Source: Methylorubrum extorquens
Lineage (GTDB): Bacteria > Pseudomonadota > Alphaproteobacteria > Rhizobiales > Beijerinckiaceae
Direction of reading: 5' to 3'
DNA: 32,000 nt
Assembly (NCBI GenBank): GCA_900234795.1
Contig: LT962688.1
Location: 1,980,001 to 2,012,000 of the forward strand
Made by a program: the position numbers and the translations under genes. Each line of letters begins with the position of its first letter. Position 1 is the first letter of the stretch. Below the pieces are notes generated by a model that worked only from the letters and a program-made list of their open reading frames with translations, was not told the origin of the DNA and searched no databases. Positions 8,621 through 26,575 of this stretch are shown in pieces.

Positions 8621-8622
8621 TC

Positions 8623-8805: not shown

Positions 8806-8861
8806 GCCAAGACCGTAGCATGGGCGACGCCATCCTCGAAGCGAGCCCTCCGTCGATGCAT

Positions 8862-8921: not shown

Positions 8922-9019
8922 GGGCGAAGAGTACGGTTCCATACTAAGGAAATCAGGCATGAACACCGCCTGCATGACCCGGTTACCCTAGTGAACCTGT
9001 TGGTTCCTCCCCAGACTTG

Positions 9020-9050
9020 CCCCGCCCGCCTCAGCCGCGGCGGGGTTTTT
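9020..9050 (+). terminator. GC hairpin plus T5, same repeat family
   Basis: CCCCGCCCGCCTCAGCCGCGGCGGGG TTTTT, followed by CGTTTCAGG, which is shared with the copy at 10589-10629. Confidence 0.55.
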
Positions 9051-9071
9051 CGTTTCAGGATCGACGCCGCC

Positions 9072-9958: not shown

Positions 9959-10042
9959 TCAGCCTCGCGTAGGCTGAGAACCACGGCCGAAGCCGAATAG
10001 GCCGCGCATCTCGGCGGCTGATTGTGCGGAGGCGTCAGTCAT
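9959..10042 (-). CDS. 27-aa ORF MTDASAQSAAEMRGLFGFGRGSQPTRG, probably a truncated remnant
   Basis: Its ATG overlaps the stop of the upstream 77-aa ORF (ATGA at 10039-10042). Its N-terminus is paralogous to MTETTERSTAEVRGLLRFAQG, which starts at 11075. Confidence 0.3.
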   Translation of the reverse strand: MTDASAQSAAEMRGLFGFGRGSQPTRG

Positions 10043-10272
10043 AACCGTTCTTGATCCTGGACGACGAACCAAGTCGCGAGGAACATCGCCGCTTCCTCCC
10101 GTGACGCTCTGCGGCCCAAAAGCTGGCCGCCCTGATCCCACGCTTTCCAGAGGCCGGGATACTCACTGTCGTCAGCAACGGTCCCCGCCACGCTCCCGTC
10201 CACTCTGACGAGGAAGCCGCCGTCGGGCCTCGGCTCGATGATGTGTTCTGGCGCGCTCACGTCAGGGGTCAA
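10039..10272 (-). CDS. Hypothetical 77-aa protein
   Basis: Sequence: MTPDVSAPEHIIEPRPDGGFLVRVDGSVAGTVADDSEYPGLWKAWDQGGQLLGRRASREEAAMFLATWFVVQDQERL. The composition is protein-like. Its TTG start overlaps the stop of the upstream small ORF and its stop overlaps the next ATG. Confidence 0.5.
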   Translation of the reverse strand: MTPDVSAPEHIIEPRPDGGFLVRVDGSVAGTVADDSEYPGLWKAWDQGGQLLGRRASREEAAMFLATWFVVQDQERL

Positions 10273-10421
10273 CCATTACGGAGCTTGCAGGCAGTGCCGG
10301 CAATCGTGGACACGGCCATCTGTCCGTCAGGGCAACCCTTATTCGGAGAGAGCACCCGCATCAGGAGTAGCACGGCAACAATGGCGATGGCCGCCATGAC
10401 TAGCTTCGCTCTTATGCCCAA
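10269..10421 (-). CDS. Small secreted/membrane peptide (42-50 aa)
   Basis: Found by hand: (M)GIRAKLVMAAIAIVAVLLLMRVLSPNKGCPDGQMAVSTIAGTACKLRNG. A strong GGAGAGGAG Shine-Dalgarno sequence lies just upstream of TTG 10421 (alternative ATG at 10397). It has a hydrophobic N-terminus. Its stop TGA overlaps the TTG start of the next ORF. Confidence 0.4.
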   Translation of the reverse strand: MGIRAKLVMAAIAIVAVLLLMRVLSPNKGCPDGQMAVSTIAGTACKLRNG

Positions 10422-10588
10422 CTGCTCCTCTCCGCCTCAGTCCCCGAGATCGAATCGACCGGGCGCCTAGCTAGGGCGTGCGGCTAGGAATGTGGACCTG
10501 AACTTTCGTCGCAGCAGGTCCGGATTAGGAGCGTGATGGCGTGGTGGGCACTCGTACCCTTCCCGTGCGCCCAGTAAGGAGAAGTTCA

Positions 10589-10620
10589 GCCCCGCCGGCA
10601 CCCGCCGCGCGGGGCCTTTT
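10589..10620 (+). terminator. GC hairpin plus T4, same subfamily as 5603-5635
   Basis: GCCCCGCCGGCACCCGCCGCGCGGGGCC TTTT followed by CGTTTCAGG. Confidence 0.5.
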
Positions 10621-10624
10621 CGTT

Positions 10625-10717
10625 TCAGGCTTCCCACGCCGCCGCGAGCATCCGCTTCCGCACCTGGGCCATGCGATCGTTGTTGCTGGCGTATCGGTCT
10701 GGAACTCGCCTAGCCAT
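10625..10717 (-). CDS. 30-aa ORF MARRVPDRYASNNDRMAQVRKRMLAAAWEA
   Basis: The DRMAQVRKRM segment is paralogous to DRMAEVRKRM encoded at about 9360-9400 (minus strand). It may be a remnant rather than a gene. Confidence 0.25.
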   Translation of the reverse strand: MARRVPDRYASNNDRMAQVRKRMLAAAWEA

Positions 10718-10738
10718 GCTCAGCGTCAAGGCGACAGG

Positions 10739-10984
10739 TCAGTGAACGATGCCGGCACCGCCAGAAACGTCCTCTTCCGCTTCGTCTCTCGCGACCCGTC
10801 GTTCGAGAATGCACGCGTTGTCGTCAAACTCGTCAGCCATGTCGCGGAGCTTCAATGCGACCTGGTCGTGCTGAGAGCCCAGCGCTTCTGCCAATACGCG
10901 GCAAAGCTCAGCCTTCTGGCGGAAATAGGAAGCTGCGGCACGCATGCCGTCTAAATGACGAAGTTCGCGTAAAACGCGAGTCAC
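10739..10984 (-). CDS. Hypothetical 81-aa helical protein
   Basis: VTRVLRELRHLDGMRAAASYFRQKAELCRVLAEALGSQHDQVALKLRDMADEFDDNACILERRVARDE... A degraded, stop-containing paralogue lies at about 9800-9890 (minus strand). It may originally have been fused to the MTETTE ORF starting at 11075. Confidence 0.4.
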   Translation of the reverse strand: MTRVLRELRHLDGMRAAASYFRQKAELCRVLAEALGSQHDQVALKLRDMADEFDDNACILERRVARDEAEEDVSGGAGIVH

Positions 10985-11120
10985 AACCGCGTGTCGCCTC
11001 GTCCAAGCCGAGGCCTTGCGCGAACCGGAGCAGGCCGCGCACCTCGGCGGTGGATCGTTCGGTGGTCTCGGTCATCGGCCTACCGGACCGCGATCTCAGC
11101 AGGAGCGGCTGGAGTGAGCT

Positions 11121-11190
11121 GCTGACCCCAAGCGGACATTCGTGGCGCTGTCGCTGCAGGTCCGGATGGGGTGGGTAGCGGACATTCGCC
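11121..11190 (+). repeat. About 70-bp dispersed repeat (GACCCCAAGCGGACATTCG ... GGTCCGGATGGGGTGG ... GCGGACATTCG)
   Basis: About 75% identical to 18622-18690. Partial copies lie at 10487-10529, 15345-15372 and 18548-18592. It contains the conserved inverted pair CGGAC-N22-GTCCG. Confidence 0.6.
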
Positions 11191-11299
11191 GGATGCTCGA
11201 CGAACGTCCGGGGTTCCTACAAAGCAGACGAGTTCGCTGCTCAGTTCGAGACCTTTCCTCCCTCGTGATCGGCCCCCACGCGGTGGTCCAAGTTCTAAG

Positions 11300-12169
11300 T
11301 TAGTGCAGGGTCGGCCTTTGCTCCACGGGTCGCTTGGCCGGCGGAGCCGACCGGGTGAGCGCAGCCGGCCAAGCGGTGAAGGCCGGCACGAACACCTCCG
11401 GGGCCGGTGGTCGGTAGCCGAGCGAGGCGTGCGGGCGCACGCTGTTGTAGTGTAGACGCCAACTCTCGATCACGATCTGCGCCTCCTTGAGCGTGTAGAA
11501 GATCTCACCGTTCAAAAGCTCGTCCCGTAGTCGTGCGTTGAAGCTCTCGACGTAACCGTTCTCCCATGGCGAGCCGGGTGCGATGTAGGCTGTTCTGGCG
11601 CCGACACCGGTGATCCAGGCCTGCACGGACTTGGCGATGAACTCCGGACCGTTGTCCGAGCGGATATGGCCGGGCACGCCGCGCAGGATGAACAGGTCGG
11701 ACAGCACGTCGATCACGTCCGCCGCCTTCAGCTTGCGTGCGACGCGGATCGCCAGGCACTCCCGCGTGAACTCATCGACCACGTTCAGCATCCGGAACTT
11801 GCGGCCCTCGTGCGTGCGGGCTTCGACAAAGTCGTAGGACCAGACGTGATCGCGACGCTCCGCCCGCAATCGCAGGCAGGAACCATCCCCGTCCCAGATG
11901 CGGCCGCGCTTGGGCTGCCGAGACGGGACCTTCAGCCCCTCGCGCCGCCAGATCCGTTCGACCCGCTTGTCGTTGACGAACCAGCCCGCCGCCTTCAGCA
12001 ATGCACCGATCTTCCGGTAGCCGTAGCGCCCGTACTGGCGAGCCAGTTCCACGAGGTCGGCTGTCAGCGCGGCCTCATCCTCTCTTCCCCGCGGCACCTT
12101 GCGCTGCGTCGAGCGATGCTGCCCGAGCGCCCGACAGGCGCGGCGCTCGGAGACGTCTAGGACGTTCAT
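11300..12169 (-). CDS. IS3-family transposase orfB (DDE integrase core)
   Basis: [18 protein letters not shown] ... SDNGPEFIA ... [22 protein letters not shown] ... [15 protein letters not shown]. The frame stays open upstream to the GGGGAAAC site at about 12205-12215, where a -1 shift from orfA would give ...[21 protein letters not shown]... Confidence 0.9.
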
Positions 12170-12207
12170 GACATGCGCGATGCAGGCGCGTCGGCGCGCG
12201 GGGCTGG

Positions 12208-12513
12208 TCAGTTTCCCCGAGCGGCCTCCTGCAGGATCAGCTTGTCGAGGGTGAGATCCGCAATCGCCTTGCGCAGCCGCTGGTTCTCAACCTCCAAGTC
12301 CTTCATCCGTCGAACCTGATCGCTCTTCAGGCCGCCGTACTCCTTGCGCCAGCGGTAGTAGGTCACTTCCGTCACGCCGATGGCCCGGATCGCCTCCGCC
12401 ACGCTCTGGCCCTGCGAGACCAGAACATCCACCTGCCGCAGCTTGGCGACCACGTCTTCCGGCTTGTGCCGCTTCGTTCCCATCTGTCCGTCCTCATCTG
12501 GCTCAAAAGCCAT
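12208..12513 (-). CDS. IS3-family transposase orfA (HTH)
   Basis: 101 aa: [85 protein letters not shown], the classic IS3/IS407 orfA pattern. Confidence 0.9.
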
Positions 12514-12536
12514 ACCTCAGGGCGGACCACTTCAGT

Positions 12537-14289
12537 GGCTCTTCGTCGGGTTTGGTGGATCACGCTGCGAGGAGGAAGCGGCGACGCAGGAGGTCGAGCT
12601 TGGCGCGGCCATACATCGAACGCTTCAACAGCTTGAGGCGGTTGACCTGCCCCTCGTCCTGTCCGCTGCTCCAGGGCAGGCGAAGGCCTGCACGAACAGC
12701 GGCTCCATCCTGAGCGAGGCTGACGGCGAAGCTCTCGACCACCCGCACACCGCAGGCACGGGCGTCGGACAACCAAGCGTCGAAGGCGGTGGTGATGCCG
12801 GGCTTGGCCGGCGCGGCGCTGCAACGGCTGCGAACGATTCGACAGAACCGCCGACCGAGCCCGACGACCTTGGCAGCCTCGTCATCCTGCAGCACGCGCG
12901 CGACCAGTGCTGCGGCGTCGGCGTCGAGGTCATCCGGCTCGCGCAGGAGGTGCCACGACAACTGCTTCGGCGAGGGCAGCGGCGGCGACGGGGGCGCGAC
13001 CTGCGCCATGGGCGACGGCGTCTGGAGGCGCCAGATCGTGGTCCTGGCGGGGCGCGTGCGCCGCTCGGACAGCCAGCGTCTGACCTGCTTGACGGTGCCG
13101 GGAAAGCCGCGATCCCGCAGCTCGCGCCAGAGCTGCATGGCGTTCTCGCACCCGCAGCCTGGCGAGCGTGCAGGTGATCGAGATGAGGATCGAGGATGCT
13201 GCGCCCTGGCCCGCGCCCGTCATGGCGCGGGAAGCCCTCGGCGAAGGCGTACTTGCGCACCGTGGCGCGAGCCAAGCCGGTCTCGCGATTGATGAGCCGG
13301 AGCGACTGCCCGGCCGCACGGCGGCGACGGACATCGTCGTAGAGCTCCTCCCACCGACCGACCGCTGCAGCGCGGGCGAGCGTCTCGGCGGGTGCACGCG
13401 GATAGGCTCTGGTGCGCCGGGTCGAAGGCGCTGGCGCCGTGATCGGCGGCAAGAGCTTCAGGCGCGGGTGGACACGGGCGAGCCAACGCTCGATCATCTG
13501 GCGGGTGTTGAGCAGGAGATGCCACCGGTCAGCGACCTGCACGGCCGCCGGCGCGCCAAGCGTGGTGCCGCGGGCATACTCGGTCGAACGATCGCGCGCC
13601 ACGAGCCGGATCTGTGGCTGGCAGCGGAGCCATGCGGCCCAGGTCTCGGCCGAGCGGTCAGGGAGCAGATCGAGAGGGCGATGGCGTTCGAGGTCGACGA
13701 CGATCGTGCCGTAGGTCCGCCCTTTGCGCAGCGCCCAGTCATCGACGCCGACGACACAGGGTCGAGGCGCCTTCGGCAGCGGCACTCCCCGGATCGTCCG
13801 CAGCAGAGTCGTGGCGCTGGACGGCATGGCCAGGTGTGCGAGCAACCGGGCAGCTGGCTGTCCGCCGAGTGCGAGACCGGTCCGGGCCTGCGCCCCGGCC
13901 AGCCGGCGGGTGCGTTGGGCATGGCGGGCGAGTAGCTTCGGGAACCGTTCGGCGAAGGTTCGGCGGGGGCAGGCTGGGTCGCAGCAGTAGAAGCGCCGAA
14001 CCTCCAACTGCAGCCGAACGGCCTTGCCGCTGGCCGGCAAATCGGCAGGCCGTCGCCGATACCGGCTATGGACCGACGTGCTGATGGCTCGGCACGTCGG
14101 GCAGCGGGCGTGGTCGGGCTTCGCTTCGGCGACGAGGGTGAGGGCGGTGGGGCCGTCCCGCGCGACGCGGACGAGGCGGCAGCCAGGCAAAGGGATGAGC
14201 TGGGTCATGCCCCGATCTGCGAGGCTGAACCGACCACGCCAAGACCCCAACCGTCACGCACCTCGATCCACCAAACTCGGCGATGAACC
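12537..14289 (-). mobile_element. ISL3-family insertion sequence (1753 bp) with 8-bp target duplication ACTTCAGT
   Basis: The inverted repeat GGCTCTTCGTCGGGTTTGGTGGATC (12537 onward) matches the reverse complement of the other end, GGTTCATCGCCGAGTTTGGTGGATC (ending at 14289). The direct repeat ACTTCAGT is at 12529-12536 and 14290-14297. It is inserted 12 nt from the tip of the IS3 inverted repeat. Confidence 0.85.
12560..14208 (-). pseudogene. ISL3-family transposase, apparent single frameshift
   Basis: The N-terminal frame from ATG 14208 starts MTQLIPLPGCRLVRV...CPTCR...RRFYC, a zinc-finger-like region. The C-terminal frame is ORF 12560-13138 (MQLWRELRDRGFPGTVKQVRRW...GQVNRLKLLKRSMYGRAKLDLLRRRFL). 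The frames switch near 13140-13200. In the ORF track, the last third of the 541-aa ORF is out-of-frame Arg/Ser/Pro junk. Confidence 0.8.
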
Positions 14290-15591: not shown

Positions 15592-16521
15592 TCATCCCAG
15601 GCTGCCGGCGAACCGCTCCGCCAGACGCCCCGCCTTGAACGCCTCTCCCACCCAATCGACGAAGGCCCGCGTCTTCGCCGGCAGATGGACGCGCGAGGCG
15701 AAGTAGAGAGAGATCGCACCGGCATCGGCGTACCAGCGCGGCAGTAGGCGCACGAGGTCGCCCCGGTCCAAGTCGGGGCGCACGTCGGGTACTGCGACGA
15801 GCGTGACGCCGAGGCCTAGCAGCGCCGCCTCGCGCATTGCGTTGGGGTCGTTGACGACGACGCTCTCCCGCTGCTGGGCCACCGCCTCGCAGCCGGTGGC
15901 GTCGCGCATAGCCCAGTGCCGGATGCGGCCGGTCTGTAGCGACCGCATGACGATGCCCTCGAACGCCTGGAGCCCTGCCGGGTCGGAGGGCGGCACCCGG
16001 CCCCGCATGTAAGCCGGCGACGCCACCGCGATGATGTGGGCGGGTGCCAGGGTCCGGGCGACGACGCCGGGGGACAGCGCGAAGCCGCCGCCGATGGCGG
16101 CGTCGTACCCTTCGGCGACCAGATCGACTTGGCGGTTCTCGAAGTGCCATTCCGGCCGGACACGCGGGTAGCGGGCCAGGAAGCCCGGCAGGAGCGGCAG
16201 GACGTGGCTCACCCCGAACGTCGGCGGCAGGCTGACCTTGAGCGTACCGACCGGTTCGCCGCCATCGGCGGAGATGCCGGCAATTGCGGCTTGCAGCCCT
16301 TCCAAGTTACCGACGACCGCCTGGCGGAAGCCCTCGCCGGCCTCGGTCAGGGTGAGCTTGCGCGTCGAGCGGTGGAACAGCCGCACGCCGAGGTTCCGCT
16401 CCAGCATGGCCACGTTGCGGCTGACCGCGGCTGGTGTCAGCGATAGCCGCCGGGCGGCTTCGGAGAAGCTTCCGCACTCGGCGCTGCGCACGAAGGCTTC
16501 GAGATTGGCCAAACTTTCCAT
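15592..16521 (-). CDS. LysR-family transcriptional regulator
   Basis: I start it at ATG 16521: MESLANLEAFVRSAECGSFSEAARRLSLTPAAVSRNVAMLERNLGVRLFHRSTRKLTLTEAG, a canonical LysR HTH, followed by a substrate-binding-like domain of about 200 aa. It is divergent from the SDR operon. Confidence 0.9.
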   Translation of the reverse strand: MESLANLEAFVRSAECGSFSEAARRLSLTPAAVSRNVAMLERNLGVRLFHRSTRKLTLTEAGEGFRQAVVGNLEGLQAAIAGISADGGEPVGTLKVSLPPTFGVSHVLPLLPGFLARYPRVRPEWHFENRQVDLVAEGYDAAIGGGFALSPGVVARTLAPAHIIAVASPAYMRGRVPPSDPAGLQAFEGIVMRSLQTGRIRHWAMRDATGCEAVAQQRESVVVNDPNAMREAALLGLGVTLVAVPDVRPDLDRGDLVRLLPRWYADAGAISLYFASRVHLPAKTRAFVDWVGEAFKAGRLAERFAGSLG

Positions 16522-16530
16522 GTCGGCACC

Positions 16531-16547
16531 TTCAACGATCCGTTGAA
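16531..16547. promoter_or_regulatory. Perfect palindrome TTCAAC-N5-GTTGAA, candidate LysR box (T-N11-A type)
   Basis: It lies in the 109-bp divergent intergenic region, 10 nt upstream of the LysR ATG. Confidence 0.4.
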
Positions 16548-16630
16548 AGCGTAACAACCCACTCGCGGCTAAACCAGGTGGAGTTCCCGGGCCATCCTCA
16601 TCCTCATCGAACAAGCGATGGAGCGATGAC

Positions 16631-17390
16631 ATGACCCAGGTATCCCACCCCCTCGCCGGCAAGGCGGCGCTCGTGACCGGCGGATCGCGCGGCATCGGCG
16701 CGGCCATTGTCCGACGCCTCGCCCGCGACGGCGCCAACGTCGCCTTCAGCTATGTCCGCCTCGCGCGAGCGGGCCGAGGACATGGTCCGCGAGGTCGAGG
16801 CCCTCGGTCGGCGGGCGGTCGCTATTAGGGCGGACCAAGCCAGCGCCGCCGAGGTCGAATCCCTCGTGCGGGAGGCCCACGCCGCGCTCGGACGCCTCGA
16901 CATCCTGGTTAACTCTGCGGGCGTATTCGTCACCGGCATGGTCGGCGACCCCGGGGCCGACCGCAATGCCTTCGACCGGCAGCTCGACGTCAACGTCAAG
17001 GGCGTTGCCGCGGCAGTTCGTGCCGCCGTGCCGCTGATGGCGGAGGGCGGGCGGATCGTGTCCATCGGCACCACCGGCGCGGTCCACGTCCCGTTCGCCG
17101 GCGCAGCCGACTACGTCGCTACCAAGGCCGCGGTGGCGGCCTACACCCGCGGCTGGGCCCGCGACCTCGGACCTCGCAACATCACGGTCAACCTGATCCA
17201 GCCGGGTGCAATCAACACCGACATGAACCCGCAGGACGGCCCCTTCGCAGAGACGCTGAAGGGCCTTGCCGCGCTCGGGCGCTACGGCCAGCCGGAGGAT
17301 GTCGCGGCGGCGGTCGCCTTCCTGGCCGGGCCGGATGCCGGATACGTCACCGGCGCCACGCTGAACGTCGATGGCGGCCAGTCCGCCTGA
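16631..17390 (+). pseudogene. SDR-family oxidoreductase with a 1-nt frameshift
   Basis: Frame 1 gives MTQVSHPLAGKAALVTGGSRGIGAAIVRRLARDGANVAFSYV. Frame 2 continues (A)SRERAEDMVREVEALGRRAVAIRADQ...YVATKAAV...NVDGGQSA. TGxxxGIG and YxxxK motifs are present. There is an extra C around 16755-16760 (GTCCGCC). Confidence 0.8.
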
Positions 17391-17422
17391 ACCCTCGATC
17401 CAGCCACGCGAGAGACAGCACC

Positions 17423-18025
17423 ATGACCACCATCGGCATCATCGGCGCCGGGCAGATAGGCACCGCCATCGCGACCGCGCTCGCGCGGCACGGGATTCCT
17501 GCCACGCTCGCGAATAGCCGAGGCCCGGAAAGCCTGGCGGAAACCGTCGCCGCGCTCGGTCCGAGCATCACGGCCGGTAGCCGTGAGGAGGCTGCCTCGA
17601 AGGACATGGTCTTCGTCGCTGTGAACTGGTCGAAGCTGCCCGCGGCGCTCGCGGCGCTGCCGGAGTTCGGCGGCCGCATCGTCGTAGACGCCAACAATCC
17701 CATCGAGGCGCCGCTGTTCAAGCCGGTTGAGCTCGGCGGCCGCTCGTCCTCCGAAGCGTTCGCCGACTGGGTGCCGGGGGGGCGGGTTGTGAAGGCGTTC
17801 AACCACTTGCAGCCGCAACTGGTCGCTGGTGACCCAGCCAGCGATGGCGGACGGCGCGTGCTGTTCTACTCAGGGGACGACGCCGAGGCGAAGGCGCAGG
17901 TGGGCACGCTGATCGAACGGCTCGGCTTCTTCGGCATTGACCTTGGGCCGCTCGCGCTTGGAAGCCGCCTCGTTCAGTTCCCCGGCGGTCCGCTGACGGC
18001 GCTGAACCTCGTGAAATTCAACTGA
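17423..18025 (+). CDS. NADP oxidoreductase, F420-dependent-type (NAD(P)-binding Rossmann protein)
   Basis: MTTIGIIGAGQIGTAIATALARHG...VFVAVNWSKL...VVDANNPI...VVKAFNH...DDAEAK is the typical F420_oxidored (NpdG-like) layout, about 200 aa. Confidence 0.75.
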   Translation: MTTIGIIGAGQIGTAIATALARHGIPATLANSRGPESLAETVAALGPSITAGSREEAASKDMVFVAVNWSKLPAALAALPEFGGRIVVDANNPIEAPLFKPVELGGRSSSEAFADWVPGGRVVKAFNHLQPQLVAGDPASDGGRRVLFYSGDDAEAKAQVGTLIERLGFFGIDLGPLALGSRLVQFPGGPLTALNLVKFN

Positions 18026-18060
18026 CCCCACGGCTCGACCACTCCTGAAGGAGACATCCC

Positions 18061-18462
18061 ATGACCGACTCCAACGAGACCAGCCAAAGATCGGCAGAGC
18101 CCGATTACGACGGGCTGCTGCGTGCCAACCTGGAGCGCATCTTCAACGAGCATGATATCGACAGGCGCGCGGCTGCGCTGAACGAACTCTTCGTGGCTGA
18201 GCCGATCATGTATGAGCCGGCCAACGTCGTTCAGGGGCGCGCAGCCATTTCCGCGGTCGCCGGCAACTTGCTGGACCAGTTCGGTCCGACGTTCCGGTTC
18301 ACCCCAATAGGGGGTGCAGTCGGCCATCACGGCCTGGGAACGCTGCAGTGGCAGGCGGGCCCAGAGGGTGGACCGGTTACAGTCACCGGTGCGGACGTGG
18401 CCGAAGTCGTGGACGGCAGGATCGCGCGCCTCTGGGTGCTGCTCAACCCACCTACAGCCTGA
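18061..18462 (+). CDS. NTF2/SnoaL-like domain protein
   Basis: 133 aa. The size and pattern (LERIFNEHDIDRRAAALNELFVAEPIMYEP...GADVAEVVDGRIARLWVLLNP) fit the NTF2-like fold. The assignment is by pattern only. Confidence 0.6.
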   Translation: MTDSNETSQRSAEPDYDGLLRANLERIFNEHDIDRRAAALNELFVAEPIMYEPANVVQGRAAISAVAGNLLDQFGPTFRFTPIGGAVGHHGLGTLQWQAGPEGGPVTVTGADVAEVVDGRIARLWVLLNPPTA

Positions 18463-18547
18463 GCCTGCGACGTGGCGTGGACTGCCGCATGGTGAGGACG
18501 TTGTGGCCGCCGGACCAACCATTCCATTTCAACGACAGCTGTTGGGC

Positions 18548-18690
18548 TCCAAGCGGTCATTCCAGTGTCTTCGGTCGAAGGTCCGCTGATGGCGCGAAGC
18601 CGACAAGTCGGCATGCGAACTCCTGACCCCTTGCGGACATTCGACCCGCCCTCGCCGAAGGTCCGGATGGGGTGGAAAGCGTCCGCTCTC
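18548..18690 (+). repeat. Two tandem copies of the ~70-bp dispersed repeat (see 11121-11190)
   Basis: 18622-18690 is the good copy (CTGACCCCTTGCGGACATTCG...GGTCCGGATGGGGTGGAAAGCGTCCGC). 18548-18592 is a weaker copy (CCAAGCGGTCATTCC...GAAGGTCCGCTGATGG). Confidence 0.55.
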
Positions 18691-18752: not shown

Positions 18753-19208
18753 TCAGACCTTTGCCGCAACCGGGAGCCGAAAAGGCGCTCCGAGCCGGTT
18801 GAACGCGTTCATCGCCGCGATGGTGATCGTGAGGTCCACGAGATCCTTGGGCGTGAAGGCCGCGCTTGCGGCCGCATAGGCTTCGTCGGACGCGTGCGTC
18901 TCGCTGACACGTGTGACTTCCTCCGCCCACGCGAGCGCGGCGCGGTACTGGTCAGAGAGCAGATGGGGGACCCCGGCCCAGACCGGAACCAGGGCGACTT
19001 TCTCGAACGGCATCGTCTTTAGGAGGTCGCGGGTATGTTTGTCGATGCAATGCGCGCAGCCGTTGATCTGAGACACGCGCAGGAAGACGAGGTGGATCAG
19101 TTCTTGGGGCAGGTTGGTGCCGGTGGTGATATAGTGGTGGATGCTGAAGAGTGCCTTCGCCCCCTGCGGCGCCACCTCGTTCCAGACCAGCCGTGTGTTC
19201 TCGCTCAT
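18753..19208 (-). CDS. Carboxymuconolactone decarboxylase (CMD)/AhpD-like family protein
   Basis: 151 aa with the AhpD-type motif RVSQINGCAHCIDKH (CxxC). Preceded by an ECF41-type promoter. Confidence 0.85.
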   Translation of the reverse strand: MSENTRLVWNEVAPQGAKALFSIHHYITTGTNLPQELIHLVFLRVSQINGCAHCIDKHTRDLLKTMPFEKVALVPVWAGVPHLLSDQYRAALAWAEEVTRVSETHASDEAYAAASAAFTPKDLVDLTITIAAMNAFNRLGAPFRLPVAAKV

Positions 19209-19255
19209 AACAACTCTCTAGCCTCGAAACGCCGGAGATCGACGTTTGAAGCCAT

Positions 19256-19282
19256 GACGAACCGACCGGCCAGATTGTGACA
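19256..19282 (-). promoter_or_regulatory. ECF41-type promoter TGTCACA-N16-CGTC driving the CMD gene
   Basis: On the minus strand, TGTCACA is at 19282-19276, the spacer is exactly 16 nt and CGTC is at 19259-19256. The -10 element lies 48 nt upstream of ATG 19208. Confidence 0.7.
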
Positions 19283-19403
19283 TGCCACGCGATATTTTCC
19301 TTCGACAGAAGTCCAATGCAGCTTGCTCACATTCGAACGTCCGCTCGGGGGAGGGCTGATTGCGTCATCCGACGACCGAAGCGCAGAAATAAGATCCAAC
19401 CGA

Positions 19404-19430
19404 TGTCACATCCGGCCGAAGCGCATCGTC
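19404..19430 (+). promoter_or_regulatory. ECF41-type promoter TGTCACA-N16-CGTC driving the membrane-protein/sigma operon
   Basis: TGTCACA at 19404-19410, 16-nt spacer, CGTC at 19427-19430. The -10 element lies 34 nt upstream of ATG 19464. Confidence 0.7.
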
Positions 19431-19463
19431 ACCCTTACGGACCAACCCCTTGGCGAGAGTGCG

Positions 19464-19859
19464 ATGAGCAGAGCTATTCCGATACTAGCTGGCCTCTTTG
19501 GCGCGGGACTAGCTGCCAACGGCATCTTCATGCTCGCCTCACCTGAGGCATGGTACTTCGCAGTGCCGGGTGTGACCACGACGGGCCCATTCAATCAGCA
19601 CTTCCTGCGCGATATCGGTCTGATCTTCATCCTGATCGGGTCAGGGTTTGTATACGGTGCGGTGAGACCCGGCTCGCGTTTGCTGATTTGGAGCACGGGT
19701 GCGATCTGGCTCTCTGGGCATGCGTTGTTCCACTTCTGGGAGGTTGCCGTGGGAATTTGCGGGCCGGAGGTTCTCCCCCGCGACTTCCCCGCGGTGACAC
19801 TTCCTGCGCTTATTGCGGTTGCCCTTAGCATCTGGTCGTTTCGCCATGCCGACCGTTGA
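19464..19859 (+). CDS. Integral membrane protein (131 aa, about 4 TM helices), co-transcribed with the ECF41 sigma factor
   Basis: I start it at ATG 19464 (MSRAIPILAGLFGAGLAANGIFML...). It has four hydrophobic segments. Its last 14 nt overlap the sigma-factor start (19846). Confidence 0.7.
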   Translation: MSRAIPILAGLFGAGLAANGIFMLASPEAWYFAVPGVTTTGPFNQHFLRDIGLIFILIGSGFVYGAVRPGSRLLIWSTGAIWLSGHALFHFWEVAVGICGPEVLPRDFPAVTLPALIAVALSIWSFRHADR

Positions 19860-20745
19860 TGATCCCACCCTTGTCTTCGAACAGGAGCGGGCGCGACTCA
19901 TCCGGCTCGCCTACCGCATGCTCGGTTCATTCGGCGAAGCCGAGGATGTCGTACAGGACGCCTGGCTCCGTTGGCGGCACGTCGACCATGCCGGTGTGGC
20001 TTCTGCCGGTGCCTTCCTGTCGCGCACGGTCACTCGGCTCTGCCTTGACGTCATGAAGTCCGCCCGAGTGCGGCGGGAGACATACTTTGGGACCTGGTTG
20101 CCCGAGCCTGTTGCCATGGCCCCGGACGAAGCTCCTGGGGATGACCTGACACTCACGCTGATGCTTACCCTGGAGCGACTCTCACCCCTGGAGCGGGCGG
20201 CGTTTCTCCTGCACGACGTTTTCGCGATCCCTCTTGCGGAAATCGCAGCGACACTTCAGCGTGAGCCGCCAGCTGTCCGTCAACTCGCCGCGAGAGCCAG
20301 GAAACACGTGCAGTCGGCACGTCCGCGCTTCCCTGTCGAGAAGGAAGAGGGGGCACGCATCGCCAAAGCCTTCTTCGAGGCGTCGGCGACTGGCGACATC
20401 ACGGCGCTCCGCAGCATGCTCGCCGATGCCGTCGTTGTGCACTCCGATGGCGGCGGAAAGGTCCACGCATTCCCCCGGCCCATCGTCGGGATCGACAAAG
20501 TCACGCGCATGTTCGAGGGTGCTGCGCGCAAGTCGTGGATCCAGCGTGCCCAGAAGCTGCAGGACCTCTGGATCGATGGCCTGCCGGGCTACTTCAGCCT
20601 GGAGCCAGGCGGAACACTCCAGACCGTCGCCCTCGATATCCAGGGCGGCCTGATCGTCGGCATCTACTTCACCCGCAACCCGGACAAGCTCGAACGCATG
20701 GCAAGGCTGTTCGGAGGGGCAGCAGGAGCACCGATGCGTCACTGA
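19846..20745 (+). CDS. ECF sigma factor, group ECF41 (SigJ-like) with C-terminal SnoaL-like extension
   Basis: 299 aa. Region 2 is ERARLIRLAYRMLGSFGEAEDVVQDAWLRW. The signature linker is YFGTWLPEPV. Region 4 is LSPLERAAFLLHDVFAIPLAEIAATL. A C-terminal extension of about 120 aa follows (FFEASATGDITALRSMLADAVVVHSDGGGK...), as in ECF41 proteins. Confidence 0.9.
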   Translation: MPTVDDPTLVFEQERARLIRLAYRMLGSFGEAEDVVQDAWLRWRHVDHAGVASAGAFLSRTVTRLCLDVMKSARVRRETYFGTWLPEPVAMAPDEAPGDDLTLTLMLTLERLSPLERAAFLLHDVFAIPLAEIAATLQREPPAVRQLAARARKHVQSARPRFPVEKEEGARIAKAFFEASATGDITALRSMLADAVVVHSDGGGKVHAFPRPIVGIDKVTRMFEGAARKSWIQRAQKLQDLWIDGLPGYFSLEPGGTLQTVALDIQGGLIVGIYFTRNPDKLERMARLFGGAAGAPMRH

Positions 20746-20748
20746 GCC

Positions 20749-21189
20749 TCAACGCCGGGCGATCGCGAGTTCTTTGCGGCAGACCGCCGAAAATGCGCAG
20801 AGCGGGTCGAGGTCGCCGGAGTGGTGAATGTCCGCGTAGGCGGAGAGATCCTTGTTCGGAGCGAAGTAGGTCGCGCCGATGCGCTGCATGACACGCTCCG
20901 CCTCTTCAAGCGTCTCCGGCTCTCCGAAAAGCCGGATCTTGTTGACGATGGCATAGAGGTTCACCAGTTTGGCCGGGTCGTCGAGGGCATGCTGGAAGGC
21001 ATCGCCGAACAAGGTCGACGCCTCCCGAATGAACTCGCCGTAAAGCGTTTCCCGTCGCGCGCGATCCTGCACCAGCAGAGTTGCGCGCTCCTGGTTGCGT
21101 AGCGTCAGCCATGTGGTCGCGAACGAGGCCATCGCGCCGATGGCGGAACCTGCAAGCGCGGAAAGCGCCGAGACGTAGGCCGCATTCAT
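20749..21189 (-). CDS. Hypothetical protein with N-terminal TM helix (146 aa)
   Basis: I start it at ATG 21189 (MNAAYVSALSALAGSAIGAMASFATTWLTL...), 13 nt after the NmrA-like stop, so it is probably in the same operon. No family was recognised. Confidence 0.55.
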   Translation of the reverse strand: MNAAYVSALSALAGSAIGAMASFATTWLTLRNQERATLLVQDRARRETLYGEFIREASTLFGDAFQHALDDPAKLVNLYAIVNKIRLFGEPETLEEAERVMQRIGATYFAPNKDLSAYADIHHSGDLDPLCAFSAVCRKELAIARR

Positions 21190-21202
21190 CGGCAGGCGTG
21201 CC

Positions 21203-21973
21203 TTAGGCCACGCGCTTGGGCTGCGCCGCCAGCCAGTCACCGTAGCGCCGCTGCGACAGCCACGCGTAGCCGGTGGGTGTTAGCCAGCGGTTTTCGAGGA
21301 GCACTCCGAAATATGGCGCGGTGTCGTCCGTGATGAATTCACGCGTTTCGCCGATGCCATCGAAGTGGCGCTTCACCAATTCGACCATCGGCAGCCGCAC
21401 GGGGCCGGCGATCTCGATCATGCCGTTTCGGGGTGGTGCGAGCGCGGCCTCGGCGACCTTTGCGGCCACATCGGCCGATGCGATCGGCTGAATCGACGCA
21501 GAGGTTACTCGCGCGACGCCGTCGATAATTGACGCTCCCGCAATCGTGCCAACGAACTCGAAGAACTGCGTGGCACGGACAACCGTCCAGGGCACGCCCG
21601 CGGAGGCGATCAACTCCTCCTGGGCCAGCTTGGCGCGGAAGTAGCCGCTGTCGAGCAGGAGCTCGGTTCCGACCACCGACAGCGCCACGTGATGCGGGAC
21701 GCCCGCAGCCTTCTCGGCCTCTGCGAGGTTCCGTCCGGCGCGGACGAAGAAATCCATCACGGCGTCGTCGGCAAAAGAGGGCGAGTTGGCGACGTCGACG
21801 ACAACGCCGGCACCCTGCAACGCATCTGCCAGCCCTTTGCCCGTGACAGCGTTCACCCCTGTACTGGGCGAGGCCGCGAGCACCTGGTGGCCGGCGCCTC
21901 TCAGGTTGGCGACGACCTGCGAGCCAATCAGCCCGGTGCCGCCAATGACGACGATCTTCATGTGACGCTCCAT
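21203..21973 (-). CDS. NmrA-like / NAD(P)H-binding SDR-type oxidoreductase-epimerase
   Basis: MKIVVIGGTGLIGSQVVANLRGAGHQV is a Rossmann GxxGxxG motif. The length (about 250 aa) and overall pattern fit atypical SDR/NmrA-family proteins. Confidence 0.85.
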   Translation of the reverse strand: MERHMKIVVIGGTGLIGSQVVANLRGAGHQVLAASPSTGVNAVTGKGLADALQGAGVVVDVANSPSFADDAVMDFFVRAGRNLAEAEKAAGVPHHVALSVVGTELLLDSGYFRAKLAQEELIASAGVPWTVVRATQFFEFVGTIAGASIIDGVARVTSASIQPIASADVAAKVAEAALAPPRNGMIEIAGPVRLPMVELVKRHFDGIGETREFITDDTAPYFGVLLENRWLTPTGYAWLSQRRYGDWLAAQPKRVA

Positions 21974-22009
21974 CTCGACTCCCGTCCCATCAGGACGGTC
22001 GTGCTCATG

Positions 22010-22037
22010 ACGAGCAGCGCCACTTGCGATGTGACAT
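22010..22037 (-). promoter_or_regulatory. ECF41-like promoter TGTCACA-N17-CGTC upstream of the NmrA-like operon
   Basis: On the minus strand, TGTCACA is at 22037-22031, the spacer is 17 nt and CGTC is at 22013-22010. The -10 element lies 37 nt upstream of ATG 21973. Confidence 0.55.
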
Positions 22038-22269
22038 CGGTGCGGAAGATCGATGCGCCCGACTTGGGCCTGGAAGCGCCTGACTTGTGGGATGCTCTTG
22101 GCAGGGCGGCCCCGAAAGAAGCCGTTCAGGTTCGAACCAGCCGAGACAGCGTGCGATTCTACGCAAGCGCATCCTCGGGACAGATCCCGAGGACGAACGA
22201 TTGTAAATGGGCAACCCGTACGCGAATCCCGGGTTCAACCGAAGACCGGGGTAGCACGGGTCCATGCGC

Positions 22270-23223
22270 TCAGTAGTCCCAGAACACGGGAACCCACCGA
22301 AAAGCGTTGCCATCGACCGCAACCCGACCGACGGACGGGAACGGCAGGTGCGTGGCGATCAACTGCTCGCCGGTCGCCGCGAGTTCACCCAGGAGCCGGA
22401 CGCGGACGCGAGCCGCCTCCTCGGGATCGTGTTCGAAGCCGTTGTGCCAGTCGGGGTGCTCGAACCCGACCGTGAACACGGCATCGCCAGCGAATGTCAG
22501 GCGGTCGCCGCCGGATGCGAGGCGGACCACGCTGTGCCCGGGTGTGTGGCCGCCGGTGCGTTGTACGATCACCCCCGGCGCGACCTCATGTTCCTCGTCG
22601 AACAGCCGCAACTGGCCGCGATACTCTTGCGCGAACCGCTTGGCGGCAGTCCGGAGCGCATCAGGGAAGCCCTGTGGCATGTTGACGTGAGTAAAGTCGG
22701 GCGCTTCCCAAAATTTGACCTCGGCAGCCGCCACGTGGATCTTCAGGTCCGGGCGCAGCCGCTCCTTCACACCGTCGACGAGGAGCCCGCCGACATGGTC
22801 CATGTGCATATGGGTTAGCACCACGTCGGTCACAGACGCGAGATTGATGCCAGCGGCCTGCAAACGCCTGACCAGTTGCCCGGCCCGCGACAGGTCTAGG
22901 TTCGGATCCAACCCCAACCCGGCGTCAATGAGGATGGTCTGGCCGCCACTGCGGACCAGAACCACGTTCAGCGACCAGTCGAAGGCATCCGGCGGCAGGA
23001 ACATGTCGTTCAGCCATGTCGCCCTTACGGCCGGTTCGACGTTGTGTCCCAACATCTTGGTCGGGAGCGGCAGCACTCCATCGCTGACGACCAGCACGTC
23101 GATCTTGCCGATCCGCACTGCGTAGCGCGAGGGCACCAATTCCTCACCCCCCACACGCGAAGGTCCAGCATATCCCGGATCGGTTCGTCCGGTATTGGCA
23201 GGTACTACAGTCGACATCGTCAT
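22270..23223 (-). CDS. MBL-fold metallo-hydrolase (lactonase-like)
   Basis: It has the HxHxDH motif (VLTHMHMDHVGG) and later GGHTPGHSV and D/H ligand positions. The start is set at ATG 23223 or 23217 (after AAAGGG), because the ORF-track TTG at 23286 lies only 1 nt from the predicted -10 element. Confidence 0.85.
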   Translation of the reverse strand: MTMSTVVPANTGRTDPGYAGPSRVGGEELVPSRYAVRIGKIDVLVVSDGVLPLPTKMLGHNVEPAVRATWLNDMFLPPDAFDWSLNVVLVRSGGQTILIDAGLGLDPNLDLSRAGQLVRRLQAAGINLASVTDVVLTHMHMDHVGGLLVDGVKERLRPDLKIHVAAAEVKFWEAPDFTHVNMPQGFPDALRTAAKRFAQEYRGQLRLFDEEHEVAPGVIVQRTGGHTPGHSVVRLASGGDRLTFAGDAVFTVGFEHPDWHNGFEHDPEEAARVRVRLLGELAATGEQLIATHLPFPSVGRVAVDGNAFRWVPVFWDY

Positions 23224-23287
23224 CCCTTTCGTGGGACGCGCGTGCATTTCGCTTGTCTGGTTCATAAAACGCGCGTCATGCCACAAG

Positions 23288-23314
23288 GACGAGGTTGGGT
23301 CGGCAGGTGTGACA
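23288..23314 (-). promoter_or_regulatory. ECF41-type promoter TGTCACA-N16-CGTC upstream of the MBL-fold hydrolase
   Basis: On the minus strand, TGTCACA is at 23314-23308, the spacer is exactly 16 nt and CGTC is at 23291-23288. Confidence 0.65.
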
Positions 23315-23346
23315 TGGGCGATAGGAAGGCGAACTTATCGCCCATG
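23313..23346. promoter_or_regulatory. Perfect 10-bp inverted repeat CATGGGCGAT-N14-ATCGCCCATG abutting the -35 element
   Basis: Arms at 23313-23322 and 23337-23346. The proximal arm overlaps the last two nt of the TGTCACA box. Confidence 0.4.
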
Positions 23347-23675
23347 AAAGATCGTTACTCCGTGATCTGCCCGGAGCGGAAGTTTCTGGGGTCCGCAATG
23401 GGTCGATTTCGATGAAAACGCGGGATCGGCCCGAAGCAGCACCGCTAGCAGCGGCTTCAGGAGAAAATCCTACTTCCGGTTTGCTCAGAATGCGCAGCTG
23501 TAGTGGCATCGCATCTCTTATGAGAAACAAAAATTCTCCAACCAACTGTGCTGCGCGACGCTTGGCGCACGGTCCTGAAGTTTTCCAAAAAAAACCGGTC
23601 GCAAGCAGTCCCTCGAATGGTCAAGCTGATTGGGTTCTGGTTCTAGGAAATGGTGAACGAAAAAGTCGTTCCCGC

Positions 23676-24400: not shown

Positions 24401-24559
24401 TCGGCGTCGGCGAGTTCAACGACGGCCTCGCCCAGGGCGGCGAGAACCGCTGGAAGTCGCGGTTCATCATGAATGTCGGCTATCATTTCTGACCTTCAGG
24501 TGCTGTCGAGGGAATTGCGGCGCATAGCCCCCAGCGGTACCCGCCTGACTCTGCTACGC

Positions 24560-24877
24560 GGAGCACCGGGTGCGATTCAGGTCGACAACGGGCCTGAGTT
24601 CGTCTCGAAAGCCCTCGACCGCTGGGCCTACGAGAACGGTGTCACGTTGAACTTCTCGCGCCCTGGCAAGCCGACCGACAACGCATTGGTCGAGTCGTTC
24701 AACGGCCGCCTGCGCGACGAGTGCCTGAACGCGAACTGGTTCTTGTCGGTGGCCGACGCGAGGAGCAAGATCGAGACGTGGCGGCGGCACTACAACGAGA
24801 GCCGTCCTCACACCGCCCTGGGGTGGCGAACGCCCCAAGAATTCGCCCTGGCGGCGGCCCTGCAGCCCGCCGAATGA
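24560..24877 (+). pseudogene. IS3-family transposase orfB, C-terminal fragment only
   Basis: IQVDNGPEFVSKALDRWAYENGVTLNFSRPGKPTDNALVESFNGRLRDECLNANWFLSVADARSKIETWRRHYNESRPHTALGWRTPQEF. No orfA or N-terminal part lies upstream. Confidence 0.85.
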
Positions 24878-25099: not shown

Positions 25100-26575
25100 A
25101 TGTCGGGCGGGAAAAACCGTGAGATTATCGAAGACCTCAGGCGGCGCTTAGCCACCGCTGAAGCCGCTGCTAGCGCATCACGCGAGAACGAAGAACGATA
25201 CCGCACATTCTTCCACGGCATGGGACAGGGCTACACCGAGCTGGAACTTGTGCGCGGCGAAGACGGCCAGGTTGTGGATCAGCGCTACATCTCCTTGAAC
25301 CCAGCCTTCGAACGACTGTTCGGCGTCGCTGTCACCGATGCTGTGGGGCGGACTGCAGGCGAAGTCTTTCCCAATCTTGAAGCATGGTGGCATGAAGCCT
25401 TCGACCGCATAGCTCGTCATGGCCAGCCCGAACGCATTGAAAACATCATGAGTTCACTGGGCCGCGCATTCGAGATTTTTGCGTACCCGGCAGGTGGCGA
25501 CCGGCTCACAGTCCTGTATGAGGACGTGACGGATCGCCGACGCATACAGGATGCTTTGCGCGAGAGTGAGACGCGCTATCGCAGTCTGGTTGAAGGCTTC
25601 GGTCAGGCGACGTGGGAGGCGGAGCCGGACGGACGCATCGTGAGCGATAGCCCGAGTTGGCGTGCGTATACCGGCCAGCCGTTGGACGAATGGCTCGGGA
25701 GCGGATGGCTGACTGCGATTCATCCTGATGATCGTACTCCCACACTCACGAAGTGGCTTGAGGCGGTTGAGGCAAGGCACGCCGTTGATCACGAGTATCG
25801 CCTATGGCACGCGCCCAGTGCGTCCTGGCGCTGGTCTAACGTTCGCGCGGTGCCAATCCTGGATACGGTCGGGGCGATACAGCGTTGGGTGGGCATCAAC
25901 ATTGATGTCAACGACCGACGCATGCTGCAAGAGAGTCAGCAGGTGATGGTCTCTGAGTTGCAGCACCGTACCCGCAACCTGATCAGTGTTGTCCGCGCGA
26001 TCGCTGGACAGACAATACGCGCGAGCATTACACTTACCGAGTTCGAGGCGGCATTCAATAATCGTCTTAACGCTCTTTCTAGGGTGCAGGGGCTGCTCTC
26101 ACGCTCGGACGATAAGCCGATCACGATAGGCGCGTTACTGCGTTCGGAATTGGAGGCACTAGGCGCGGCGGACAGGTCGGATCGATTGGTGGTAAGGGGG
26201 CCAGAAGTGCGCCTGCGCAAGGGCGCCGTACAGACTCTCGCGCTCGCGCTGCACGAGCTATGCACTAATGCCCGTAAGTACGGCGCGTTGACCAGAGAGT
26301 CTGGGCGGCTTCGGATTACCTGGAGAACTTATTCGGTGAAAGGCGAAGGCCTGCGCCTTATCCTGGAGTGGGTTGAAACCGGCCTCATCAGGGAGCCTGA
26401 AAATCAGAATCAGCTAACGAGGCAGGATGGATACGGACGTCAGCTGATCGAACGAGGCCTTCCCTACGCGCTCAACGCAAGAACAAGCTTCGAATTGGGT
26501 GCCACCGAACTTCGTTGCACCATCGACCTGCCACTTCCGAAGCGAGGCGCTCGTAACGGCCAACTCGGCTTTTGA
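25100..26575 (+). CDS. PAS-PAS sensor histidine kinase of the HWE/HisKA_2 type
   Basis: 491 aa. It has two PAS/PAC-like modules (EERYRTFFHGMGQGY... and ETRYRSLVEGFGQATWEAEPDGRIV...WLTAIHPDD). The H-box is SELQHRTRNLISVVRAIA. The ATPase region (HELCTNARKYGAL...GYGRQLIER) is typical of HWE kinases. No response regulator is adjacent. Confidence 0.9.
   Translation: MSGGKNREIIEDLRRRLATAEAAASASRENEERYRTFFHGMGQGYTELELVRGEDGQVVDQRYISLNPAFERLFGVAVTDAVGRTAGEVFPNLEAWWHEAFDRIARHGQPERIENIMSSLGRAFEIFAYPAGGDRLTVLYEDVTDRRRIQDALRESETRYRSLVEGFGQATWEAEPDGRIVSDSPSWRAYTGQPLDEWLGSGWLTAIHPDDRTPTLTKWLEAVEARHAVDHEYRLWHAPSASWRWSNVRAVPILDTVGAIQRWVGINIDVNDRRMLQESQQVMVSELQHRTRNLISVVRAIAGQTIRASITLTEFEAAFNNRLNALSRVQGLLSRSDDKPITIGALLRSELEALGAADRSDRLVVRGPEVRLRKGAVQTLALALHELCTNARKYGALTRESGRLRITWRTYSVKGEGLRLILEWVETGLIREPENQNQLTRQDGYGRQLIERGLPYALNARTSFELGATELRCTIDLPLPKRGARNGQLGF

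Follow-up and report, generated by a model that had tools for sequence, protein, structure and literature searches.

Sigma factors of the ECF41 type, which form one of the largest groups of extracytoplasmic function (ECF) sigma factors (>12,000 members; Casas-Pastor et al. 2021 preprint, doi 10.1101/2019.12.11.873521), carry a WLPEP linker as their hallmark (PMC3426412) and read promoters of the consensus TGTCACA-n16-CGTC (spacer 16 +/- 1), which was derived from 285 upstream regions and validated by rapid amplification of cDNA 5' ends (5'-RACE) and by reporters in Bacillus licheniformis and Rhodobacter sphaeroides (Wecke et al. 2012, PMC3426412). Here, we analyse a stretch of 32,000 nucleotides from Methylorubrum extorquens (GenBank assembly GCA_900234795.1, contig LT962688.1, positions 1,980,001 to 2,012,000; hereafter ‘the window’), in which an earlier note, giving this consensus as Wecke et al. 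2012 (PMC3426412) do, had reported four copies of the promoter around one sigma factor gene. We consider it very probable, judging from the sequence, that the 4.6-kb cassette at 18753-23314 is an ECF41/SigJ locus and that its local regulon consists of four units, each headed by a perfect promoter of its own.

Among the described systems, RpoE9 of Sinorhizobium meliloti was found by overexpression to have one target, the upstream carboxymuconolactone decarboxylase (CMD) gene SMb20029 (Schlueter et al. 2013, PMC3616915; Lang et al. 2018, PMC6180224), whose mapped transcription start lies 9 nt downstream of the motif; a broader role is ascribed to RpoE10 of Azospirillum brasilense in the form in which it is cited in PMC8999054. 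The earlier note set the cassette against loci with a single adjacent gene of the COE type (carboxymuconolactone decarboxylase, oxidoreductase or epimerase), a contrast that is fair as regards the literature, but some loci with the motif before the ECF gene as well as before a divergent COE gene had already been described (PMC3426412). The same study lists ‘miscellaneous’ hypothetical and cupin genes that carry the motif, and MBL-fold (metallo-beta-lactamase) genes are unmentioned there.

Promoter motifs and their background rate

The pattern TGTCACA-N{16,17}-CGTC has exactly four matches on the two strands of the window (P1 to P4, heading the CMD gene, an operon of a membrane protein gene (MEM) and the sigma gene, an operon of an NmrA-like gene and a hypothetical gene (HYP), and an MBL-fold hydrolase gene, respectively; Table 1), as the earlier note had counted. 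By comparison, 100 dinucleotide-preserving shuffles of the window yielded on average 0.05 matches (maximum 1), and 0 of the 100 reached four. The -35 element TGTCACA by itself occurs six times, with four copies belonging to the full motif. The other two, at 48 (+), within the beginning of a PepSY_TM gene, and at 30749 (-), lack a suitably spaced CGTC. With a looser -35, -10 or spacer the window yielded no further site, which bears out the statement that no other full match is present. All four sites are intergenic and lie on the same strand as the downstream gene, 33-70 nt before its start codon (the starts of the NmrA-like and MBL genes, on which these distances depend, were set by comparison with orthologues), so that the claimed position of each copy upstream of a gene and on the correct strand is upheld. 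Three of the four sites stand exactly where they had been placed, and the third is found at 22036-22009, one nucleotide away from the 22037-22010 given for it. With three spacers of 16 nt and one of 17 nt, all fall within the 16 +/- 1 nt of the ECF41 promoter; moreover, the context of P1 (caTGTCACA...TCGTCATGG) fits both the extended consensus and the mapped promoter of S. meliloti SMb20029. In relatives, the distances from motif to gene range over 16-54 nt for CMD, 28-90 nt for NmrA and 63-64 nt for MBL.

No longer repeated element surrounds the four sites, the sole common flank being 14 nt shared by P2 and P3, and an origin as a dispersed repeat is thereby ruled out. A direct repeat (CGrCCGAAGCGCA) overlapping P2 is absent from the orthologues and was dismissed as chance.

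The background rate was assessed in two samples of related DNA. In 80 metagenomic loci anchored on homologues of the MBL protein (536,831 bp) the exact motif, with spacers of 15 to 17 nt, was found 0 times. In 80 loci anchored on homologues of the sigma factor, 74 sites were counted at up to 3 kb from the sigma gene and two in the 433 kb beyond that distance, both of the latter belonging to a second ECF41 locus of Methylobacterium sp. Leaf123. Thus, about 0.97 Mb of related DNA holds 0 exact sites outside ECF41 loci, and the high motif density at which, according to the earlier note, four hits would be unremarkable is not seen in this sample.

The sigma factor

The product of the sigma gene matches the NCBIfam SigJ model NF007214 over residues 10-285 (355 bits, cut-off 271) and the Pfam families Sigma70_r2 (46.9 bits) and Sigma70_r4_2 (42.2 bits), each over its cut-off, and so has the sigma2 and sigma4 domains of the Group 4 architecture. 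Its translation contains the linker GTWLPEPV, which aligns with TWLPEPV of Mycobacterium tuberculosis SigJ (5xe7), and the alignment to that structure (E 1.4e-41, residues 11-282) continues through the C-terminal domain to NPDK; the SnoaL-like extension of about 100 aa that is typical of the group is recognised by way of this alignment and the full-length SigJ model. Linkage to COE genes is twofold, through the divergent CMD gene and the NmrA-like gene. On the strength of these matches the protein is a clear member of ECF41/SigJ, and the hallmarks that the earlier note had read from the sequence hold, with the qualification that the SnoaL_2 family taken alone stays below its cut-off.

Among the neighbours of the sigma gene no match to an anti-sigma family was obtained with Pfam or NCBIfam, although the two membrane proteins flanking it, MEM and HYP, are uncharacterised. 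An anti-sigma role of MEM was considered and judged unlikely, since in other phyla MEM is constantly paired with an NmrA gene where no sigma gene is present.

Conservation in related loci

The nearest homologues of the sigma factor are found in Methylobacterium sp. EM32 (94% identity), Methylobacterium longum (92%), Methylobacterium sp. Leaf123 (92%; locus L027) and a Hansschlegelia metagenome-assembled genome (MAG; 77%). P2, P3 and P4 are present in the three Methylobacterium loci, and P2 and P3 in Hansschlegelia, with TGTCACA and CGTC invariant in all four and with diverged spacers and flanks. Locus by locus, P2 is kept, with diverged spacers, in L001, L002, L027, L003 and L172 (the Methylobacterium radiotolerans plasmid pNYY1_1, NZ_CP090580.1); P3 is kept in the same five, both in its two elements and in its N17 spacing, and P4 in L001, L002, L027 and L172. 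Nucleotide homology between the window and the three Methylobacterium species starts at 19379-19400 and ends at 23342-23405, so that the -35 elements of P2 and P4 delimit the block common to the species. At least 23 contigs, complete chromosomes among them, code for an identical sigma protein and carry the whole CMD-MEM-sigma-HYP-NmrA-MBL cassette with the four sites at identical spacing; NCBI assemblies that encode this protein include GCA_002117815.2 and GCA_030062705.1. In every related locus examined the sigma gene is linked to these units.

A further comparison is provided by pNYY1_1, whose cluster (L172, 6010-10642) likewise contains four exact matches. Its CMD gene (89% identical) stands at the opposite end and is divergent from MBL; a promoter of its own precedes it, again by 47 nt, and the homology runs through this promoter and for about 60 nt further upstream. 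The promoter therefore travels with the CMD gene, which would be difficult to account for if it had no function. Conservation at orthologous loci, which the earlier note had named as a check on its claim, consequently speaks for the sites, as their -35 and -10 elements are invariant and as all four are retained on the plasmid despite the move of CMD.

The gene set and the motif in other genomes

Across the 80 sigma-anchored loci, 74 of the 76 exact sites are followed, on their own strand and within 250 nt, by a member of one of the six families of the window (CMD 51, NmrA 11, MEM 6, MBL 3, sigma 3). The number of exact sites per locus was 0 in 17 loci, 1 in 55, 2 in five, 3 in two and 5 in one, and loci with three or more belong to the Methylobacterium group only.

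The same gene families recur in other arrangements behind ECF41-type motifs, in distant members of the Alphaproteobacteria and in one myxobacterium. A Geminicoccaceae MAG (L174) has NmrA-cupin-HYP and CMD-sigma, with the exact motif before each, while NmrA-MBL-(cupin)-HYP and CMD-sigma are each preceded by TGTCACT-N16-CGTC in L008, L175 and L176. The exact motif also stands before an NmrA-MEM operon in Melittangium boletus (CP022163.1; L167, 3135-4417) and before a cupin-HYP-acetyltransferase operon in Roseomonas sp. (L173, 3689-5933), with no sigma gene within 4-5 kb in either locus, which indicates that ECF41 targets need not adjoin the sigma gene, in contrast to the view that only adjacent COE genes are controlled.

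The second ECF41 locus of Leaf123 (L027, 4225-7368) has the order NmrA-MEM-sigma, with 4.5 kb separating it from the first. At 5744 (-), an exact motif stands before the gene of a membrane protein whose C-terminus resembles class III adenylate/guanylate cyclases by its sequence motifs. The sigma gene of the first locus is split over three frames (tblastn), as a possible pseudogene or through assembly errors.

Gene units of the cassette

The CMD protein matches Pfam CMD (40.9 bits, cut-off 23) and TIGR00778 ahpD_dom (36.3 bits, cut-off 27.8), and its nearest entries in the PDB are the uncharacterised AhpD-like proteins Atu0492 (2gmy) and PA0269 (2o4d); homologues with 76-89% identity adjoin ECF41 sigma genes in Sphingomonadales and Rhizobiales. 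The NmrA-like protein scores 31.9 bits with Pfam NAD_binding_10 and 31.2 bits with NmrA, its PDB relatives are weak, and its start (MKIVVIGG, with GGAG 7 nt upstream) is kept in the orthologues.

MEM belongs to a family of more than 2,700 homologues, distributed from Alphaproteobacteria to Myxococcota. Its AlphaFold2 (AF2) model is a bundle of four transmembrane (TM) helices (pLDDT 88.2) for which Foldseek found no significant match in the PDB (best E 0.13), and the invariant residues are N44, Q45, H46, D50, H86, H90, E93 and C99. Elsewhere the gene is almost always placed directly after an NmrA-like gene, which suggests that MEM is a membrane partner or a cofactor-binding subunit of the NmrA-like reductase. 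In the cassette, the end of the MEM gene, with its stop codon, shares 14 nt with the beginning of the sigma gene. HYP has homologues in the ECF41 loci of Geminicoccaceae and other Alphaproteobacteria, and its AF2 model (pLDDT 77.5) likewise gave no significant Foldseek match in the PDB (best E ~1). Searches of Pfam (E <= 10) and NCBIfam returned no match for MEM, HYP or the minus-strand open reading frame (ORF) at 17974-18522.

The MBL-fold protein matches Pfam Lactamase_B (92.7 bits) and the PDB entries 7y7u, 5hif/6c2c, 4o98, 4zo2 and 1p9e (E 1e-30 to 1e-36), and scores 122.9 bits against the NCBIfam AidB lactonase equivalog, failing its cut-off of 360. These matches place it in the clade of methyl parathion hydrolases, dihydrocoumarin hydrolases and N-acyl homoserine lactone (AHL) lactonases. 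The predicted leader of the gene contains a stem-loop (single-sequence fold z-score -2.8) and after it a hairpin in contact with the ribosome-binding site AAGGGA. Across five closely related sequences, one inner pair is compensatory, and two changes on a single side leave wobble pairs in place. We tentatively regard the stem-loop as conserved, and the structure may affect translation or mRNA stability.

The stop codons of the sigma (+) and HYP (-) genes converge at a distance of 3 nt (20743-20751). A simple scan found no terminator between them, and a terminator-like hairpin for the plus strand lies inside HYP (20915-20936). Given this convergence, the transcripts from P2 and P3 should overlap as antisense pairs.

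Table 1. Features of the window (positions counted from its first letter).
Feature	Position	Strand	Description
CMD	18753..19208	-	carboxymuconolactone decarboxylase / AhpD-like, 151 aa, CxxC motif CAHC
P1	19256..19282	-	TGTCACA-N16-CGTC; predicted promoter of the CMD gene; CGTC end to ATG 47 nt
P2	19404..19430	+	N16; predicted promoter of the MEM-sigma operon; CGTC end to ATG 33 nt
MEM	19464..19859	+	four-helix membrane protein, 131 aa, uncharacterised family
sigma	19846..20745	+	ECF41/SigJ-type, 299 aa: sigma2, WLPEP linker, sigma4, SnoaL-like C-terminal domain
HYP	20749..21189	-	146 aa, N-terminal TM helix and helical bundle; second gene of the NmrA unit
NmrA-like	21203..21961	-	NAD(P)H-binding atypical short-chain dehydrogenase/reductase (SDR), 252 aa; ‘epimerase’ class of COE genes
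P3	22009..22036	-	N17; predicted promoter of the NmrA-HYP operon; CGTC end to conserved ATG 47 nt
MBL	22270..23217	-	MBL-fold hydrolase, 315 aa, intact HxHxDH (HMHMDH)
MBL 5' leader stem-loop	23224..23276	-	predicted; 8-bp ACGCGCGU/ACGCGCGU stem, then short CCC/GGG hairpin
P4	23288..23314	-	N16; predicted promoter of the MBL hydrolase gene; CGTC end to ATG 70 nt
SnoaL_2, stand-alone	18061..18462	+	true gene where the minus-strand ORF 17974-18522 was listed
DDE_Tnp_1	7013-7648	-	insertion-sequence remnant
rve/HTH_21	11300-12169	-	insertion-sequence remnant
ISL3	12625-14250	-	insertion-sequence remnant
rve_3	24473-24877	+	insertion-sequence remnant

Proposed regulation and alternative explanations

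We reason that the sigma factor probably switches on four neighbouring transcription units, instead of a single gene. That these units are wired to one sigma factor, as the earlier note had it, is supported in silico by the motif statistics, the site conservation and the recurrence of the gene set, which together with the assignment of the sigma family were obtained in this analysis; the specificity of the sigma factor for the motif, the control by its C-terminal domain and the distance to the start site are taken from the literature. Building on both, we infer that all four units would be transcribed from these sites by this sigma factor.

In the proposed scheme, the fused SnoaL-like domain would keep the sigma factor at low activity, as established for the family (Wecke 2012; 5xe7), until a cue relieves it and the holoenzyme with RNA polymerase binds TGTCACA (-35) and CGTC (-10), so as to start transcription about 9 nt downstream. 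Using the distance of 9 nt from S. meliloti, the starts are predicted near 19247 (-), 19439 (+), 22000 (-) and 23279 (-). Transcription from P2 would amount to positive autoregulation through the MEM-sigma operon, P1 would supply the CxxC-containing AhpD/CMD-like protein, P3 the NmrA-like NAD(P)H-dependent reductase together with the membrane-anchored helical protein HYP, and P4 the lactonase-like MBL hydrolase. In this Methylobacterium lineage the module would have been broken into promoter-plus-gene units, with the common promoter type keeping them co-regulated.

From the gene families we infer that the module may handle an oxidative, electrophilic or lactone-type compound. A narrower reading, which we hold to be distinctly unlikely, is that the cargo forms a single pathway devoted to a compound of the lactone, coumarin or quinone type, with its substrate or product as the ligand of the SnoaL-like domain of the sigma factor; the pathway would then comprise the NmrA-like reductase with the four-TM protein MEM and its invariant His and Cys residues, MBL, HYP and CMD, with a cupin elsewhere. 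Such a compound could be plant-derived in leaf- or soil-associated Methylobacterium.

Several observations weigh against a local regulon of four units under this sigma factor. Published ECF41 studies give a single target operon (PMC3426412; S. meliloti RpoE9), our motif count covers the 32-kb window alone, which bears on the words ‘compact’ and ‘local’, the 17-nt spacer of P3 is at the edge of the published range, and the Pfam SnoaL_2 match in the sigma factor reaches 22.9 bits, under the cut-off of 27. Methylobacterium genomes furthermore hold ECF41 paralogues (L021 and L022; the two loci 4.5 kb apart in Leaf123). Lastly, the 80 soil-metagenome MBL homologues (75-88% identity) show neither an ECF41 sigma gene within 5 kb nor an exact motif; a broad ECF41 control of MBL genes, tested on these loci, was thus not found, and P4 rests on its conservation in Methylobacterium and on the co-linear operons elsewhere. 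As judged from these loci, ECF41 control of the MBL gene by a promoter of its own is specific to this lineage. Many of the 80 homologues still adjoin NmrA-like and CMD genes, and in Mesorhizobium-like contigs the MEM homologues follow an NmrA gene under a different regulator. The presence of NmrA-MEM pairs, and of MBL beside NmrA and CMD, without a sigma gene indicates that the cargo is a functional module independent of the sigma factor.

The existence of paralogues means that the local sigma factor may not be the only or the main reader of the four sites. They might be genuine ECF41 promoters that have paralogous ECF41 sigma factors from elsewhere in the genome as their main or additional readers, with the cassette as a node of a multi-sigma network, and to this we assign a rather low probability. 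It is favoured by the sameness of the motif across sigma factors that are just 52-66% identical, and by the Melittangium and Roseomonas motifs, which lie without a sigma gene close by and make action in trans appear normal; against it stands the placement of the sigma gene inside the cluster and behind one of the four promoters, together with its linkage to the units in all related loci. Cross-talk between paralogues is compatible with a local regulon of four units.

We find it highly doubtful that only some of the sites (e.g., P1 and P2) are active and that P3 or P4 is a weak or silent remnant, with the NmrA and MBL genes expressed from other promoters. The less common spacer of P3, the long structured leader downstream of P4 and the many MBL homologues elsewhere that escape ECF41 control would fit this account, as would the near-consensus sites of B. 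licheniformis, for which a sequence match alone did not predict activity (PMC3426412). Those failed sites, however, were imperfect matches, whereas the sites of the cassette are perfect, and P3 (its N17 included) and P4 are invariant in diverged orthologous loci; in addition, NmrA is the second commonest gene downstream of the motif (11 exact cases), and a simple scan of the four intergenic regions revealed no sigma-70-like promoter as an alternative.

A reading of the copies as chance, as a dispersed repeat or as the operator of a conventional transcription factor, to which the nearly palindromic TGTCACA (TGT-N-ACA) lends some colour by its likeness to many dimeric operator half-sites, is effectively refuted by the shuffles, the empty 0.97 Mb outside ECF41 loci and the unrepeated surroundings of the sites, and by the retention of the C at the centre of TGTCACA, of the orientation to the gene and of a constant 16-17 nt before CGTC, a pattern that fits the bipartite -35/-10 layout of a promoter, as opposed to a symmetric operator.

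Genomic surroundings

The DNA to the left of CMD differs among strains with cassettes that are about 99.8% identical, the break lying at ~18493-18575; the variants (L161-L166) are TetR/ABC/RND, LysR/SDR/F420-oxidoreductase/SnoaL_2, SMC-like and RND/DUF2955 clusters. Nearly identical cassettes beside unlike left flanks indicate that the cassette sits at a recombination-prone junction. The plasmid pNYY1_1 is mobilizable and 658 kb in size, and its cluster is located near an integrase gene and a VapC toxin gene.

In the window, the DNA immediately left of the cassette contains a LysR regulator gene divergent from genes for an SDR, an F420-type NADP oxidoreductase and the stand-alone SnoaL_2 protein (15592-18462). 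This cluster has no ECF41 motif, and the SnoaL_2 protein lacks sequence similarity to the C-terminal domain carried by the sigma factor. Insertion-sequence remnants are abundant (4400-14250 and 24473-24877), and the GC content drops to ~0.53-0.54 at 5-6 kb and at 23-24 kb, the latter directly past P4. Further genes, unrelated to the cassette, code for a TonB-dependent receptor and a PepSY_TM protein at the left end of the window (47-3864) and, right of the cassette (25100-26575), for a PAS/HWE histidine kinase. Rfam at gathering thresholds and a tRNA scan gave no hit in the window.

Significance

The ECF41 family and its promoter are known; new are the four promoter-bearing units round one sigma gene and the evidence for rearranged promoter-plus-gene units, as well as the presence, among the predicted targets, of two membrane protein families that are uncharacterised and of an MBL hydrolase. 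The finding hence extends the known ECF41 system without overturning it, in that the ECF41 promoter, in some Alphaproteobacteria, stands before as many as four adjacent units. The recurrent cargo consists of CMD, the two uncharacterised membrane families, an NmrA-like reductase and a lactonase-like MBL hydrolase, and the substrates of the enzymes among them are candidate inducers, offering a lead towards the signal and the role of ECF41 sigma factors. The locus also offers four natural perfect promoters for reporter work, and the relocation of the CMD unit illustrates how a regulon may evolve by the movement of promoter-plus-gene modules. Should the cargo indeed form one pathway, the cassette would show co-regulation being kept while promoter-plus-gene units shuffle and move on plasmids.

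Comparison with known ECF41 systems

Counterparts in gene content are the loci L174, L008, L175 and L176, in which the same families (NmrA-like, MBL, HYP, CMD and sigma) follow ECF41-type motifs. Those loci are co-linear and have two promoters, in the arrangement [NmrA-(MBL)-(cupin)-HYP] and [CMD-sigma], several of them with a TGTCACT -35 element and usually with a cupin gene, whereas the cassette has four units on both strands, no cupin gene and MEM in front of sigma. M. tuberculosis SigJ (5xe7; Goutam et al. 2017, PMC5766207) is similar to the sigma factor over its full length, the SnoaL_2-like domain included, but is actinobacterial and found in another genomic context. For S. meliloti RpoE9, the extended context of the promoter (CCATGTCACA...TCTCGTCATGG) is nearly identical to that of P1 and P3; its CMD gene is co-transcribed with rpoE9, while in the cassette CMD is separate and divergent and sigma follows the MEM gene. 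Ecf41Rsp of R. sphaeroides (RSP_0607, with RSP_0606) and Ecf41Bli of B. licheniformis (with ydfG; PMC3426412) share with the sigma factor described here the sigma2-WLPEP-sigma4 architecture with a fused C-terminal regulatory domain, the TGTCACA-N16-CGTC promoter and a CMD target; they have no recognisable anti-sigma factor, and in the cassette no neighbour matches an anti-sigma family of Pfam or NCBIfam. Their sole detectable target is the CMD(-sigma) operon, whereas here four promoter-bearing units are set round one sigma gene, and the predicted cargo goes beyond CMD, with two membrane proteins of uncharacterised families and a lactonase-like MBL hydrolase.

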